From positions 151,421 through 215,420 of the forward strand of contig CAVSUL010000002.1 in NCBI GenBank assembly GCA_963731325.1: a stretch of DNA of 64,000 nt. Reading direction: 5' to 3'. The stretch is from an uncultured Verrucomicrobiae bacterium. Its GTDB lineage: Bacteria; Verrucomicrobiota; Verrucomicrobiia; Chthoniobacterales; JAFAMB01. Each line of letters starts with the position of its first letter. Within the stretch, counting starts at the first letter, position 1. A program made the position numbers and the translations under genes. The notes under the pieces are model-generated. The model saw nothing but the letters and a program-made list of their open reading frames with translations, searched no databases and was not told the DNA's origin. Shown piece after piece: positions 3,357 to 58,933 of this stretch.

Positions 3357-3373
3357 GCCTGAGGATTGCCTGT

Positions 3374-3394
3374 GAGTTGTCGCCGCTTTCGGAT
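3374..3394. repeat. Degenerate fragment of the family-1 inverted-repeat arm
   Basis: GAGTTGTCGCCGCTTTCGGAT matches the inner part of the family-1 arm (CGACTTGTCGCCGCTTTCGGAT) with 2 mismatches. No partner arm is present. Confidence 0.4.
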
Positions 3395-7377: not shown

Positions 7378-7506
7378 GTTTTGGAGTGCGCGCGACTTGT
7401 CGCCGCTTTCGGATCGCGCGGAGCGTGACCTCCAGCCAGAGGACGCAACCACAAAGCGCGGGGTTTCCCGGCAAAAAGCGGCGACAAGTCGCGCGCACTC
7501 CAAAAC
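7378..7506. repeat. Family-1 inverted-repeat element, short copy (129 bp)
   Basis: Left arm GTTTTGGAGTGCGCGCGACTTGTCGCCGCTTTCGGATCGCGCGGAGCG. Right arm AAAGCGGCGACAAGTCGCGCGCACTCCAAAAC. The interior is shortened. Confidence 0.85.
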
Positions 7507-9682: not shown

Positions 9683-11056
9683 TTAGAGGAATTTCCCCGG
9701 GTTGAGCAGGTTTGCCGGATCGAGCGCGTCTTTGATCCGTCGATGCAATGCTTGGTTTTCCGCCGACACTGCGTTCGGCCACCAACGTTTTTTGGCTAAT
9801 CCGATACCGTGTTCGCCGGTAATCGCTCCACCCCAGGCAAGGACCTGGGCAAACAAGGCGTCGAGCGCCCGTTCCATTTTCTCGGCCACGCCGGGGCCGT
9901 CGGGGTCAGCAACCATGATATTCACGTGGATGTTGCCGTCTCCAGCATGGCCGAAGCAAGCGACCGGAAAGGTGTATTTTTTTTGCAGTCCAGAGGCAAA
10001 TTCGACCAGATCCACCAACCGACTGCGCGGCACAGTGACGTCTTCGTTGAGCTTTTTTAGCCCGGTCGCCTTCAGCGACTCAGAAAAGCCGCGCCGCAGG
10101 TCCCACAACCGCTCACAGGCGTCTTCACCGAATGCTGATTCAAGCGTCAGAGCGCCTGCCGATCGGACCAGACGAGCGAGGGCAGCCAACTCCGACTTCA
10201 CCGATTCGATCTGCCCGTCCAGATCGACAAGCAAGTGGGCTGCTCCCTCCGGTACAATCTGCCGGGACAGATGTTCCCGGGCCGCTTCCAGAGTGAACCG
10301 GTCAGCAATCTCCAAGGCAGACGGCAGATATCCCCTGGCAAGAATTAACTGCACCGCAGCGGCCGCTGCCTCGATCGTGCGAAAGCTGCCCGACAGAGAT
10401 CCTCGAGCGGGAGGCAAAGGCAGAAGCCGCAAGGTTGCTTCCGTCACCACGCCAAGCATTCCCTCAGAGCCGACAAACAACCCGACCAGATCAAATCCCG
10501 TTTTGTTCTTCAAGGTTCGCGCCCCGAGACGCACGACCGAACCGCCGATCAACACCACTTCGACACCCAGCACATAGTTCCGCGTTACGCCATATTTCAA
10601 GCAACGGGGTCCTCCGGCATTCGTGGCGATGTTACCGCCGATCGAGCTGTTCTTGAGACTGGCCGGGTCGGGCGGATAAAACAAGCCTTCTAGACGGGCG
10701 GCCTTTTGCAGGTCCCCGGTAATCACGCCGGGCTCAACCACAGCGATCCCGTCCGGCACGGAGATCTCCTTGATGCGAGTCATCCGAGCCAGGGAAAGCA
10801 CGATCCCGCCTCGCTCAGGCACACACCCCCCAACGTACCCATAGCCAGACCCTCGAGGTGTGATGGGTATCTGACGGTGGCCCGCAAACTCCAGGAGGCG
10901 AGAGACCTCGGCAGTGGAGGTTGGACTGACGACAACGTCCGGCCGATGCCGGGCGAACCACTTATCTCCACTGTTTTCCTCAAGCACCGCCGGATCAGCC
11001 GAAACGATCTCCGGACTAAAGAGAGCAATGAGATTTTGGAGGTCGCCAGAGTTCAA
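9683..11056 (-). CDS. FAD-linked oxidase, GlcD-like (glycolate/D-lactate oxidase family)
   Basis: 457 aa. The FAD-binding PCMH-type N-terminus (ITPRGSGYGYVGG) and C-terminal GEHGIGLAKK are typical of GlcD. The TTG start lies inside a decamer repeat, so the start is uncertain. Confidence 0.85.
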   Translation of the reverse strand: MNSGDLQNLIALFSPEIVSADPAVLEENSGDKWFARHRPDVVVSPTSTAEVSRLLEFAGHRQIPITPRGSGYGYVGGCVPERGGIVLSLARMTRIKEISVPDGIAVVEPGVITGDLQKAARLEGLFYPPDPASLKNSSIGGNIATNAGGPRCLKYGVTRNYVLGVEVVLIGGSVVRLGARTLKNKTGFDLVGLFVGSEGMLGVVTEATLRLLPLPPARGSLSGSFRTIEAAAAAVQLILARGYLPSALEIADRFTLEAAREHLSRQIVPEGAAHLLVDLDGQIESVKSELAALARLVRSAGALTLESAFGEDACERLWDLRRGFSESLKATGLKKLNEDVTVPRSRLVDLVEFASGLQKKYTFPVACFGHAGDGNIHVNIMVADPDGPGVAEKMERALDALFAQVLAWGGAITGEHGIGLAKKRWWPNAVSAENQALHRRIKDALDPANLLNPGKFL

Positions 11057-11090
11057 GGAAGTTCGGGGAAGTTGAAGGAAGTTCGAGGAC
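11051..11090. repeat. Period-10 tandem array (GGAAGTTC core), 4 units
   Basis: GTTCAAGGAA GTTCGGGGAA GTTGAAGGAA GTTCGAGGAC. On the gene strand this is GAACTTCC repeats ending at the glcD-like TTG start. Confidence 0.85.
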
Positions 11091-11164
11091 GACCCCAGTC
11101 AGCCAATGCGATAGCTCTTCCGCGACCCCGCTGCTGAATCCCCTCCTGCCGCTCAAGCCTCCGC

Positions 11165-11941
11165 CTACATTCCCATGATCTCGTAGCCGCCATCGACGTA
11201 AATCACTTGTCCCGTGATTGCCGCTGCGCCGTCGCTAACCAGAAAAACGCCGGTTTGCCCTAGCTCCGCCGGATCACAGCTCCGGCGCAACGGCGCTTTC
11301 TCCTGGTATTGTTTCAACATCGTCGTGAAGCCGCTGATACCGCGTGCTGCCAGCGTTTGCACCGGGCCGGCACTAATACAGTTGACCCGAATTTTCTTTG
11401 GGCCCAGGTCATAAGCCAGATAGCGGCAACTGGCTTCCAGGCTGGCTTTCGCCACACCCATCACGTTGTAGTGCGGTACGACTTTTTGGGAACCGTAGTA
11501 GGTCATCGCGACCACGCTCCCGCCGCCGGTCATCAGCGGTACCGCTTCTCTGGTGAGCGCAACCAGGGAATAAGCGCTAACTTCATGAGCGGTCAGAAAT
11601 GCTGACCGGGAAGTATTGGTGAATTCGCCTTCCAGGGCTTCTCGAGGAGCAAAAGCGACGGCGTGCAGCAAAAAATCCACTCGATCGGTATGATTGCGGA
11701 CATTCCGGAAAAAGTCGGCGATATCATCTTCGCGAGAGACATCGCAGGGGTAAATCGGGACTGCGGCGCCGAACGTACCGGCCAATTCCTCCACGTTCTC
11801 TTTCAGGCGTTCCCCCTGATAGTTGAAAATGAGCTTGGCACCCGCCGCGGCCCATGCCTGCGCAATCGCCCATGCGATACTGCGCTTGTTAGCAACACCA
11901 AAAACAATTCCGATTTTGCCCGATAGAACTTGAGCGGTCAT
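11165..11941 (-). CDS. fabI: Enoyl-ACP reductase (NADH)
   Basis: Start taken at MTAQVLSGKIGIVFGVANKRSIAWAIA (M17 of the ORF). Contains the YYGSQKVVPHYNVMGVAKASLE Tyr/Lys catalytic block. Confidence 0.9.
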   Translation of the reverse strand: MTAQVLSGKIGIVFGVANKRSIAWAIAQAWAAAGAKLIFNYQGERLKENVEELAGTFGAAVPIYPCDVSREDDIADFFRNVRNHTDRVDFLLHAVAFAPREALEGEFTNTSRSAFLTAHEVSAYSLVALTREAVPLMTGGGSVVAMTYYGSQKVVPHYNVMGVAKASLEASCRYLAYDLGPKKIRVNCISAGPVQTLAARGISGFTTMLKQYQEKAPLRRSCDPAELGQTGVFLVSDGAAAITGQVIYVDGGYEIMGM

Positions 11942-12090: not shown

Positions 12091-12254
12091 TTTTGGAGTG
12101 CGTGCGACTTGTCGCCGCTTTAAGACGGCGCGGAGCGGGGGAGCCAACGGACGAGCGTCTTTTCACAACCACTCCTATTTCGTGATTCTGTCCTCTTTGC
12201 GAGGCCGCGCTCCGCGCGATCCGAAAGCGGCGACAAGTCGCACGCACTCCAAAA
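12091..12254. repeat. Family-1 inverted-repeat element (164 bp)
   Basis: TTTTGGAGTGCGTGCGACTTGTCGCCGCTTTAAGACGGCGCGGAGCG ... 70 nt ... CGCTCCGCGCGATCCGAAAGCGGCGACAAGTCGCACGCACTCCAAAA. Confidence 0.9.
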
Positions 12255-12269
12255 CACGCTGGGCCCGAA

Positions 12270-12947
12270 CTATCCAGCGCGTTTGCTCGCCAGCTTTTTC
12301 TTTTCGAACCGGCCGCAGCTCGGACAAAGGTCGGCCAGTTCGCAGTGCGGACAGTCCGGTTGCCGAGCGAAACACCGTCGTCTTCCATGCCAGATGAGCC
12401 AGTGGCTGAAGTTCGTCCAATTTCGACGGGGGACGAGACGCATCAGGTCGCCTTCAATTTTCTCCGGAGCGGTCTGCCGGGTTAGCCTCAGGCGCTGCGC
12501 GAGCCGGGCAACATGCGTATCGACGACCACTCCTTCCTCGATCTGAAAAGCATTCCCTAAAACGACATTGGCGGTCTTGCGGCCGACCCCGGCTAAACTG
12601 GTCAGGTCCTTCATGGTCCGAGGAACTTCGCCGCCGAACTTGTCGACTAAATCTCTGGCCATTACGCGCAAGCTCTTTGCCTTGTTTCGAAAGAATCCGG
12701 TGCTCTTGATTGCCTCCTCCAGCTCAGTCGGATCCGCCTCGGCAAGGTTGATCGGCCGCGGATATTTCAAAAAGAGTTGGGGAGTCACGAGGTTGACGCG
12801 CACATCAGTAGTCTGGGCGGAGAGAATGGTTGCGACGAGCAGTTCGAATGGATTACTGAAGTGCAGTTCACAATGGGCGTGCGGATAAGTCGCCCGCAGC
12901 CTTTGGATCAGTGTCTCGATCCTTTGCCTGGCCGGACCCACGTTCAT
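12270..12947 (-). CDS. nth: Endonuclease III
   Basis: 225 aa. HhH motif LTSLAGVGRKTANVVL and the C-x6-C-x2-C-x5-C cluster CFARQPDCPHCELADLC. Confidence 0.9.
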   Translation of the reverse strand: MNVGPARQRIETLIQRLRATYPHAHCELHFSNPFELLVATILSAQTTDVRVNLVTPQLFLKYPRPINLAEADPTELEEAIKSTGFFRNKAKSLRVMARDLVDKFGGEVPRTMKDLTSLAGVGRKTANVVLGNAFQIEEGVVVDTHVARLAQRLRLTRQTAPEKIEGDLMRLVPRRNWTNFSHWLIWHGRRRCFARQPDCPHCELADLCPSCGRFEKKKLASKRAG

Positions 12948-21780: not shown

Positions 21781-21835
21781 AGAAATTGCCAGAAACGGCA
21801 CAAGCTCCCGGCTTGTGCCGTTTCTGGCAATTTCT
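21781..21835 (-). promoter_or_regulatory. Perfect 25-bp stem / 5-nt loop filling the ptsN-argS spacer (function unknown)
   Basis: AGAAATTGCCAGAAACGGCACAAGC-TCCCG-GCTTGTGCCGTTTCTGGCAATTTCT; the arms are exact reverse complements. It overlaps the ptsN stop by 1 nt and ends 2 nt from the argS ATG. No U-tract follows it. Confidence 0.6.
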
Positions 21836-40863: not shown

Positions 40864-41076
40864 CGCCGCCTAACCTCGGTTGATACACGAAAGATCCAAG
40901 GGAGCAAACTCCGGATCCGGTATAACGGGGCGCCTGCTATGTGGCGCAAAGCGCCATGGCATTCCCGCGACTAAGGGCGAAATTTGAAACTCCCTATCTG
41001 CCGCCGTTCTGGTCAAGCCTGGATCAGTTCCTGTTCGTAAAGCGCCTCGGCGCCGTCTTGCGTGGCAGGAGCGCCA

Positions 41077-41352
41077 TGGAGTGCGTGCGACTTGTCGCCG
41101 CTTTGAGACCGCGCGGAGCGTGGCCCTCCGGGACGCAGCGTTGGGAGTGGCATTACCGGCAATGAATTGCCGGCCTATTTTCAATTCGCTCCTCCGGAGC
41201 ACATCTTCGTCCTTTCCAAAATCTCCGCAGGAAAACATCAAATTAGAAGAAAGGAGTACCAAGCGCGGAGTTCCCGATCAAGAGACCCGCCTCGTCGGCG
41301 GCCACGTTCCGCGCAGTCCCAAAGCGGCGACAAGTCGCACGCACTCCAAAAC
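41077..41352. repeat. Family-1 inverted-repeat element, enlarged copy (276 bp)
   Basis: Left arm TGGAGTGCGTGCGACTTGTCGCCGCTTTGAGACCGCGCGGAGCG. Right arm CCGCGCAGTCCCAAAGCGGCGACAAGTCGCACGCACTCCAAAAC. Interior of about 184 nt. Confidence 0.85.
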
Positions 41353-44310: not shown

Positions 44311-44476
44311 ATGGAGTGCGTGCGACTTGTCGCCGCTTTAGGATCCGCGCGGAGCGCGACGTAGACCGAAAAGAGAATTATGAAGGCCGAGTTCCCTGGC
44401 GAAAGTAACCCGCTTGGCTGCTAGCCGCGCTCCGCGCGGTTCTCAAAGCGGCGACAAGTCGCGCGCACTCCAAAAA
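44311..44476. repeat. Family-1 inverted-repeat element (166 bp), core in opposite orientation
   Basis: ATGGAGTGCGTGCGACTTGTCGCCGCTTTAGGATCCGCGCGGAGCG ... 71 nt ... CGCTCCGCGCGGTTCTCAAAGCGGCGACAAGTCGCGCGCACTCCAAAAA, immediately followed by ATG at 44477. Confidence 0.9.
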
Positions 44477-48751: not shown

Positions 48752-48784
48752 GGAAGGAACCAAGGCGCTCTTTGCTGGTGGCCA

Positions 48785-48829
48785 CGCTCCGCGGTCTCAA
48801 AAGCGGCGACAAGTCGCGCGCACTCCAAG
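48785..48829. repeat. Family-1 solo right arm
   Basis: CGCTCCGCGGTCTCAAAAGCGGCGACAAGTCGCGCGCACTCCAAG. No matching left arm in the 35 nt back to the peptidase stop. Confidence 0.8.
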
Positions 48830-48842
48830 ACATCCTCGGCCC

Positions 48843-52445: not shown

Positions 52446-52607
52446 TTTGGAGTGCGCGCGACTTGTCGCCGCTTTCGGATCGCGCGGAGCGCGGCCATCA
52501 ATAATGCGGTGCTTTTTGGCGAGGAAACTTGGCGCTTCGCAGTTCGGGTCTCCGTTTGGGTCGCGCTTCGCGCGGTTTCAAAGCGGCGACAAGTCGCGCG
52601 CTCCAAA
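52446..52607. repeat. Family-1 inverted-repeat element (162 bp)
   Basis: TTTGGAGTGCGCGCGACTTGTCGCCGCTTTCGGATCGCGCGGAGCG ... 72 nt ... CGCTTCGCGCGGTTTCAAAGCGGCGACAAGTCGCGCGCTCCAAA. The right arm has a 2-nt deletion. Confidence 0.9.
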
Positions 52608-58767: not shown

Positions 58768-58933
58768 GTTTTGGAGTGCGTGCGACTTGTCGCCGCTTTG
58801 AGACCGCGCGGAGCGCGTTTGCTAATGAAGCGGGTCTTTCTCGGGCAAATTCGGCGCTTCGTTGGTTCGCCCTCGCTCTGAGCCGCGCTCCGCGCGGATC
58901 CGAAAGCGGCGACAAGTCGCACGCACTCCAAAA
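58768..58933. repeat. Family-1 inverted-repeat element (166 bp)
   Basis: GTTTTGGAGTGCGTGCGACTTGTCGCCGCTTTGAGACCGCGCGGAGCG ... 70 nt ... CGCTCCGCGCGGATCCGAAAGCGGCGACAAGTCGCACGCACTCCAAAA. Confidence 0.9.

Follow-up and report, generated by a model that had tools for sequence, protein, structure and literature searches.

The stretch of DNA analysed here is a 64-kb window (64,000 nucleotides; contig CAVSUL010000002.1, positions 151,421 to 215,420) from the genome of an uncultured Verrucomicrobiae bacterium (GCA_963731325.1), in which a dispersed intergenic element occurs in six full copies. These elements are very probably REPINs, i.e., doublets of repetitive extragenic palindromes (REPs), of a GGAGT-footed REP family that is tied to a REP-associated tyrosine transposase (RAYT). 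Each element consists of two inverted REPs with outward-facing feet around a lineage-specific spacer, and it is the REP that represents the functional unit. Although REP/REPIN-RAYT systems as a kind are known, this REP family and the large RAYT clade belonging to it are apparently undescribed, and literature string searches with the DNA motif and the encoded peptides returned no relevant paper. The original prediction, made from the bare letters, had left the choice between a non-autonomous miniature inverted-repeat transposable element (MITE), a REP-like element and a family of long-stem RNAs; our data support the REP-like candidate.

The REP unit and the doublets of the window

The conserved unit is a module of ~28 nt, TTTGGAGT-GCGGCGAC-TT-GTCGCCGC-TTT, which combines i) a 5' foot, (T)TTGGAGT, ii) an 8-bp GC-rich hairpin with a GAC-TT-GTC apex and iii) a TTT tail. 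With its 8-bp stem and 2-nt centre, it is a short palindrome in the sense of a REP. The window version differs by one bulged pyrimidine in the hairpin and by a second small hairpin behind the module: an arm starts with the foot TTTTGGAGT, continues with the hairpin GCG(Y)GCGAC-TT-GTCGCCGC (bulged stem GGAGTGCG-Y-GCGAC) and the TTT tail, and ends, after a variable linker of 5 nt, with the hairpin CCGCGC-GGA-GCGCGG. The arms had been taken for 47-bp terminal inverted repeats, a description that has to be replaced by two small hairpins per arm, of which only the first (GGAGT foot and 8-bp stem) is conserved outside the lineage. As single-stranded DNA (ssDNA), the REP unit is predicted to fold with -7.6 to -9.4 kcal/mol (z -3.8 to -4.7). 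The two arms of a window doublet can also pair mutually, and the predicted ssDNA structure of copy 6 is one long hairpin (-73.6 kcal/mol, z = -12).

The combination of GGAGT with a perfect 8-bp palindrome was found 178 times in 966 kb of collected DNA, in comparison to 0-11 times for nine control heads including GTAGT. Sites that were chosen by foot, spacing and tail alone (GGAGTGC-N14-GCTT) comprise 43 distinct variants, and six of the six inner pairs are formed in 28 of them and five of six in another 14. In the alignment of these variants (A1), in which the foot is invariant, 95% of the cells are paired, compared with 80% after shuffling and 26-70% with partners slid, and compensatory changes affect six of the eight stem pairs; none of 500 shuffles attained the observed values. 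In addition, the arms of a doublet from a Planctomycetaceae locus (L118) bear differing self-complementary stems, GCGGTGAC/GTCACCGC and GCTCCGAC/GTCGGAGC. Therefore, local folding and not arm-arm pairing is conserved. As far as sequence patterns can tell, the hairpin is the selected unit.

In the window itself, the arm core GACTTGTCGCCGCTTT has 14 matches at up to three mismatches; in 100 dinucleotide-preserving shuffles, there were 1.04 matches on average and 5 at most, and none of them reached 14. A hidden Markov model (HMM) of the arm detected 13 full arms, one of them solo, together with a weak fragment, and a repeat search found six inverted pairs with arms of 31-55 nt and a complementarity of 86-100%. 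The six pairs lie at the coordinates that had been predicted, and the proposed arm consensus and inverted pairing of the arms hold as well. The REPs are multicopy and extragenic, as all 13 arms in 64 kb lie between annotated genes. That every copy is intergenic had been noticed before and is now backed by Pfam-supported housekeeping genes on both sides of all copies. The features are:

3367..3394, plus strand: degenerate arm fragment GAGTTGTCGCCGCTTTCGGAT (arm HMM, E = 3e-4)
7378..7506, minus strand: REPIN copy 1, a heads-out REP doublet in which a 42-nt deletion took the second hairpin of one arm; begins 19 nt past the stop codon of a GDSL-lipase autotransporter gene
12091..12254, strand unassigned: REPIN copy 2, between nth (stop at 12270, 16 nt away) and fabI
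12095..12118, plus strand: REP of the left arm of copy 2, with GGAGT foot, hairpin GCG(T)GCGAC-TT-GTCGCCGC with a 1-nt bulge, and TTT tail
12227..12250, minus strand: REP of the right arm of copy 2, with foot and bulged hairpin as in the left arm
41077..41352, minus strand: REPIN copy 3, with an interior insertion of ~110 nt, between the convergent genes for a pfkB-family kinase and an acetolactate-synthase-like protein
44311..44476, minus strand: REPIN copy 4, flanked by sodA and a uvrD-like helicase gene, which are in tandem on the plus strand
48779..48831, minus strand: solo REP arm with both small hairpins, between a convergent M24 peptidase gene and an unannotated ORF (open reading frame)
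52446..52607, plus strand: REPIN copy 5, downstream of an S46 peptidase gene and 6 nt upstream of the UDG start
58768..58933, plus strand: REPIN copy 6, in the divergent region between argH and a PIN-toxin operon

Five of these seven elements (six doublets and the solo arm) start 7-37 nt past a stop codon. Oriented by their interior core, the six copies can be aligned end to end as one ~166-bp unit, and they are best understood as descendants of a single such unit. The alignment also confirmed what had been said on interior length, weak polar core and mixed orientation: the interiors of the doublets measure 65-72 nt and occur in both orientations, apart from the length changes in copy 1 (minus 42 nt) and copy 3 (plus ~110 nt). 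Among the copies, the arms are 90-100% identical and the interiors ~60%. Target-site duplications are missing, as the flanks of the six copies contain no direct repeats and the comparison of filled and empty sites for copy 1 yielded no clean duplication. The ends of the elements are not sharp and fade into a T-run. The insertion in copy 3 holds a canonical terminator-like hairpin at 41156-41173 (CCGGCAATGAATTGCCGG, then a T-run), and copy 3 adjoins a 214-nt intergenic stretch (40864-41076) that has no counterpart in the relative introduced below.

Taxonomic range and the associated RAYT genes

The 18-mer GCGACTTGTCGCCGCTTT was searched in 185,579 species genomes and matched at least 116 stretches, several of them on megabase contigs. 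The statement in the original prediction that similar strings occur in other soil genomes and in genomes of the PVC group (Planctomycetes, Verrucomicrobia, Chlamydiae) is thereby verified. The assemblies among the matches listed comprise about 26 Planctomycetota, 10 Verrucomicrobiota, 22 Acidobacteriota, 3 Chlamydiota and a few others, and an identical 26-mer is present in several phyla among these matches. Three of the matched loci, labelled as Clostridia (L032), Rhodanobacteraceae (L084) and Devosia (L089), were discarded from the taxonomic range as chance 18-mer matches in coding-like sequence without the foot.

The matched loci have the ~28-nt foot-hairpin-tail module alone in common, each genome having flanks and spacers of its own. 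The bulged variant of the window is also found in Pirellulaceae, Planctomycetaceae, Limisphaerales and Chlamydiae as well as in the close relative of the window genome; the interior core was seen in the window and this relative only. Across the genome loci, 84 doublets are arranged heads-out, 6 heads-in and 8 as direct repeats, with a median spacer of 73.5 nt, similar to the window. Together with the six window doublets, this heads-out excess across phyla makes two inverted REPs with a short spacer the repeated unit, as is characteristic of a REPIN. In a viral contig collection, both the REP 23-mer and relatives of the RAYT were absent, and therefore there is no sign of a phage vehicle. Six loci (L003, L005, L008, L024, L034 and L109; Kuenenia GFS metagenome-assembled genomes and a 'Chitinophaga' one) share a longer repeat that starts with the REP and runs on with gcctttccRacacggcatttttgtcaatcggc... 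Possibly, this repeat represents a larger element that has the REP as its basis, and misbinning may be the reason for the 'Chitinophaga' label.

A search of the ORFs of the fetched loci with E. coli RayT as the seed led to L012, in which a 234-aa ORF is bracketed by four REPs and scores 84.2 bits on the NCBIfam model NF047646 for REP-associated tyrosine transposases (cutoff 80). In L118 and L119, which were examined as the DNA around individual homologues, REPs are located on both sides of the RAYT gene, and L119 holds an exact bulged REP of the window type. A database search with the RAYT core yielded 5,752 relatives at E <= 1e-10. In the family alignment and profile (A2), neither the HUH motif (NHYH) nor the tyrosine of YVHQN[AP]V shows any variation (H128, H130 and Y189), and many members have NA rather than NP after the tyrosine. 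A PDB search with the family profile returned 4ER8, the E. coli TnpA-REP with bound REP, as the sole match (E = 1.5e-5). HUH motif, catalytic tyrosine and the matches to NF047646 and 4ER8 thus identify the protein as a RAYT/TnpA-REP.

The REPs also extend into the RAYT genes. The core starts with WPHAP in 114 of the top 120 homologues, and in 37 of these 114 the tryptophan is directly preceded by HS[KR]x, a peptide that is the translated REP foot CACTCCAAR. Covarying REP-encoded peptides are present in many more homologues (SGDESPHSK, SDDKSSHSK, SGNELPHSK, and KAATSHSHSK for the bulged type). Further upstream, many of these homologues (P0001-P0120) have a conserved helical segment, RLxRLxxLQLxEVERLVxxLE; this predicted N-terminal segment is joined to the catalytic core via a REP-encoded linker, and in some homologues a second REP-encoded peptide is found at the extreme predicted N-terminus.

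From metagenome data, 80 loci were collected with the family profile, 72 of which have a recognisable core. At least one GGAGT-REP is present in 64 of the 72 loci and lies within 150 nt past the stop codon in 51; in 13 loci a REP ends 6-29 nt before the tryptophan codon, the distance being exactly 6 nt in nine of these. Within 300 nt of the RAYT gene, there are 4.89 REPs per kb, and at more than 1 kb distance 0.23 per kb, a ~20-fold difference. In shuffled sequence, the REP detector has a chance background of 1-7 hits in 64 kb, or about 0.02-0.1 per kb. Hence, the association of a RAYT gene with the same REPs, for which the original prediction had suggested to search the genome, holds for the family elsewhere (L012, L118, L119 and the 64/72 metagenome loci). 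The REP stems vary between RAYT loci, and these differences would be compatible with a co-evolution of REP and RAYT. Besides, all-vs-all clustering of the ORFs of 116 REP-bearing loci revealed no enriched neighbour family, as is to be expected of dispersed repeats.

Some observations on individual loci may be added. A RAYT-like ORF in L096, located 680 nt from a REP, was rejected as coincidental, since it belongs to another subfamily with its own GGAAGGTC inverted repeats. In L118, the place where the 5' part of a DUF1501 gene is expected is taken by the RAYT gene together with clustered REP doublets (9769-11251), and the remnant of the latter is a 158-aa C-terminal fragment behind the PSCyt2/PSD1 gene; this arrangement suggests that the DUF1501 gene was disrupted by a REPtron. 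L012 contains a direct duplication of ~838 bp (1557-2700), by which the module upstream of the RAYT gene (REP, variant hairpin, small N-terminal ORF, REP) recurs just 3' of the gene. The same locus has a variant REP with the usual foot and tail and another stem, GCGATGCC-CT-GGCATCGC.

Turnover, proposed mechanism and alternative explanations

FabI and the M24 peptidase place the window in a Verrucomicrobiota genome, and the neighbours are of Chthoniobacterales type. The closest available relative is GCA_963813025.1 (CAWEXO01, uncultured Verrucomicrobiae MFD09603.bin.2.211), in which FabI is 95% and the M24 peptidase 87% identical. Its syntenic stretches L123 and L205 align to the window at 76-89% nucleotide identity, and these 42 kb of DNA contain one doublet only. 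The hundreds of copies per genome that the original prediction extrapolated from the density in the window are not confirmed. One out of six testable element sites is shared, namely that of copy 2 (L123 9686-9854), where the arms with their REP hairpins are kept and interior and flanks are ~50% identical. Copy 1 is missing from its orthologous site in L123, and the site of copy 3 in L205 is a 6-nt gap between the stop codons of the pfkB-family and acetolactate-synthase-like genes. At the sodA/uvrD site of copy 4 (L205 3678-3806), we found a different inverted repeat with 35-nt arms (CAAATGCTACAAGTCAAAAAATGCCACAAATGCCA, 97% complementary) and a 59-nt spacer. Since a remnant of the REP foot, GCACTCCAAA, persists at L205 3822-3836, this suggests that a REPIN has been replaced by the other repeat. 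The sites of copy 5 (L205 14941-15052) and of the solo arm (L205 11190-11300) carry other, unrelated palindromic elements and no window-type copies, and intergenic sites in both genomes seem to be reused by various hairpin repeats. The relative also has a composite element of 268 nt (L123 6477-6745) that is absent from the window (junction 14971/14974) and consists of outer GGAAGTTCA-type inverted repeats around a degenerate REP arm and the lineage-specific interior core. Because only one of six testable sites is shared, elements appear to be gained, lost and replaced within the divergence time of the two species.

An AP_endonuc_2 gene (xylose-isomerase-like TIM barrel) at L123 12292-13144 is missing at the syntenic position 9683/9684 of the window. 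Two minus-strand ORFs of the window are separated by a perfect inverted repeat at 21781-21835 (AGAAATTGCCAGAAACGGCACAAGC; arms of 25 nt, loop of 5 nt), which is unrelated to the REP family. A tRNA scan of the window found nothing.

For the mobility of the REPINs, we propose a mechanism modelled on E. coli TnpA-REP and IS200/IS605 elements. The REP hairpin would form on ssDNA, and a single-copy RAYT of the HUH/Y1 type would bind this hairpin, read the foot, and cleave and rejoin the DNA beside it. In this way, doublets would be excised, copied and reinserted without target-site duplications. The cognate RAYT is presumably encoded in the window's own genome and, if the analogy holds, would still mobilise the window copies. 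E. coli REPs act as stabilisers of mRNA 3' ends, and a similar secondary role is plausible for the hairpins just past stop codons because of this location.

What goes beyond routine in this family is i) the near-identity of the REP across phyla, ii) the non-canonical foot and iii) the fixed in-frame REP upstream of the transposase core. It is conceivable, though on balance we doubt it, that all this reflects one REP-RAYT system with a non-GTAG foot and an in-frame REP 6 nt before the transposase core, whose recognition hairpin has stayed near-invariant (identical 26-mer) across Planctomycetota, Verrucomicrobiota, Acidobacteriota and Chlamydiota and which is either extremely ancient or horizontally spread. 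If true, such an ancient or cross-phylum pair would be at odds with the current view that REPINs are passengers which are specific to a lineage and inherited vertically. The in-frame REP could furthermore allow the RAYT to bind its own gene or mRNA and thus to regulate itself.

Several points weigh against an assignment of the window elements to a RAYT-linked REPIN family. The window contains no RAYT-like ORF, in line with the earlier remark that it lacks a transposase, and a DNA pattern joining the bulged window-type REP to the WPHAP codons had 0 matches in the metagenome data. The named RAYT matches are all from Planctomycetota, and a cognate RAYT in Verrucomicrobiota or Acidobacteriota has to be presumed. 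With interiors only ~60% identical, the window copies are old and not recent, and the integrity of their arms is maintained either by selection or by gene conversion. The differences between the window and CAWEXO01 could be explained by losses in the relative instead of gains in the window. Moreover, the unpaired conserved foot does not literally read GTAG or GT[AG]G as in described REPs, it reads GGAG(T), although the architecture is that of a REP. Finally, covariation does not distinguish between hairpins of ssDNA and of RNA.

An alternative explanation does without current mobility. According to this, the hairpins are immobile, have a host function in mRNA 3'-end protection, in termination or as sites for nucleoid or topology proteins, and are conserved by selection. 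The location of five of seven copies shortly behind a stop codon fits well to this idea, and so do the retention of the arms in spite of decaying interiors and flanks, which is seen among the copies of the genome as well as between orthologues, the very stable fold of the whole element and the covarying stems. Nevertheless, we consider it improbable, as a structural role alone leaves unexplained why several phyla have an identical 26-mer and why the REPs are enriched 20-fold around RAYT genes. In addition, one copy lies in a divergent promoter region, and another is only 6 nt away from the start codon of the gene downstream. As to termination, a terminator scan called none of the arms, in which the small hairpin has no more than TTT behind it and the long T-run is located 5' of the long stem. 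There is also no matching Rfam family that would support the transcribed long-stem RNAs of the original prediction: the whole window had 0 matches at gathering thresholds, and at E <= 1 the region 41-59 kb gave only microRNA-like long-hairpin artefacts far below the cutoffs. A host role can, however, be compatible with a REPIN origin, as it is for E. coli REPs.

Transposition by another enzyme seems even less probable than a purely structural role. In a classical MITE, a deletion derivative of an insertion sequence (IS) of the DDE type would be moved in trans by cut-and-paste via the 47-bp terminal inverted repeats. The elements are indeed short, non-coding and dispersed, have long inverted ends and a polar interior, and some copies are absent from the orthologous sites of the relative. 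The lack of target-site duplications and the ends that fade into a T-run speak against this, as does the organisation of the arms: each of them is itself palindromic, conservation across genomes is limited to the inner 28-nt hairpin module, and in L118 the arms of a doublet are not complementary to each other. An IS with these ends was found neither in the window nor in ~1.3 Mb of related loci, where the recurrent neighbour is a Y1 transposase, the RAYT. The cut-and-paste MITE of the original prediction is therefore very unlikely. We give still less credit to the assumption that the elements are ends or palindrome-associated derivatives of IS200/IS605-type transposons (TnpA-IS200 with or without TnpB) instead of partners of a domesticated RAYT. 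The chemistry is shared (Y1 HUH enzyme, ssDNA hairpins, no target duplications), and both RAYT-like ORFs found first score on NF047646, with the one in L096 alone also matching NF033573 and Pfam Y1_Tnp. The L012 protein, in contrast, carries the class-2 RAYT signature Y---N[PA] and is above the cutoff on the RAYT model only, with 25.6 bits on the IS200 model (cutoff 55). The PDB match is TnpA-REP and not an IS200/IS608 transposase, no tnpB adjoins the RAYT gene in L012, L118 and L119, and the repeats far outnumber the transposase gene.

Significance and comparison with known systems

REPIN-RAYT systems are the best-studied long-lived, vertically inherited 'replicators' in bacterial genomes. 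To our knowledge, they have been characterised almost exclusively in Proteobacteria, with scattered reports elsewhere. The family reported here brings them, with thousands of RAYT homologues, to abundant and poorly studied phyla of soil and water, and the constancy of its REP across phyla makes it possible to ask whether every REP-RAYT pair is bound to a lineage. On the practical side, the window elements are to be regarded as ordinary intergenic repeats, neither genes nor novel RNAs. The REP family accounts for many spurious 'hypothetical proteins' (ECGDLSPL and SGDKSPHSK peptides) and also for contig breaks in PVC and Acidobacteria assemblies.

Among non-autonomous elements, the Correia elements of Neisseria and other MITEs are similar in being intergenic, in a length of ~100-170 bp, in their inverted ends and in the long hairpins that are formed if they are transcribed. 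Correia elements possess well-defined terminal inverted repeats of 26 bp and duplicate a TA target; neither is true of the present elements, which are associated with a Y1 transposase. With IS200/IS605 elements they have in common the Y1 HUH enzyme acting on subterminal ssDNA hairpins and the absence of target-site duplications. In contrast to them, the gene is located outside the repeated unit, the doublets are symmetric instead of having distinct left and right ends, and the protein stays below the IS200 cutoff.

The REP/REPIN-RAYT systems described so far, such as the E. coli REP/BIME (bacterial interspersed mosaic element) with TnpA-REP/RayT, the REPINs of Pseudomonas fluorescens and the GTAG-tagged REPs (PMC3733652), share the general layout with the present family: an imperfect palindrome of 20-40 nt with an unpaired 5' foot and a short tail, extragenic and multicopy, mostly in inverted doublets with variable spacers of 20-100 nt, and clustered around a single Y1 HUH transposase gene without target duplications. 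Two differences are the foot, which is GGAG(T) in comparison to GTAG or GT[AG]G, and the near-identity of the REP in four or more phyla, which contrasts with the restriction of described REPs to single lineages. Opitutus terrae and Rhodopirellula baltica are among the species in the REP survey of Di Nocera et al. (2013), in which the feet are GTAG variants or CGTC (PMC3733652). The peptides given there for these two species (VGPALAAG, SRIRQEF and others) are unlike SGDKSPHSK and ECGDLSPL of the present family.

Compared by motif descriptions, the present RAYT looks closest to subclass 2.8 of the TnpA-Y1 class 2 proteins (PMC6006769). Both have the HuH motif NHYH and a W motif with W[YH] (VW[YFH]NFW in the present family). 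According to Quentin et al. (2018), subclass 2.8 is characterised by an N-terminal region rich in proline, by REPs inserted into some of the genes and by long flanking REPs, and has relatives in 'other unrelated phyla' (PMC6006769). The counterparts here are the N-terminal motif WPHAP and the REPs that are found inside some genes and on the flanks; in-frame REPs within RAYT genes as such have already been reported (PMC6006769). Differences concern the Y motif, which is YVHQN[AP]V instead of YIHYNP, and the foot, which deviates from GT[AG]G. The 8 proteins sampled for subclass 2.8 all come from Cyanobacteria (PMC6006769), whereas the family associated with the GGAGT-footed REPs has 5,752 members at the E-value threshold given above.

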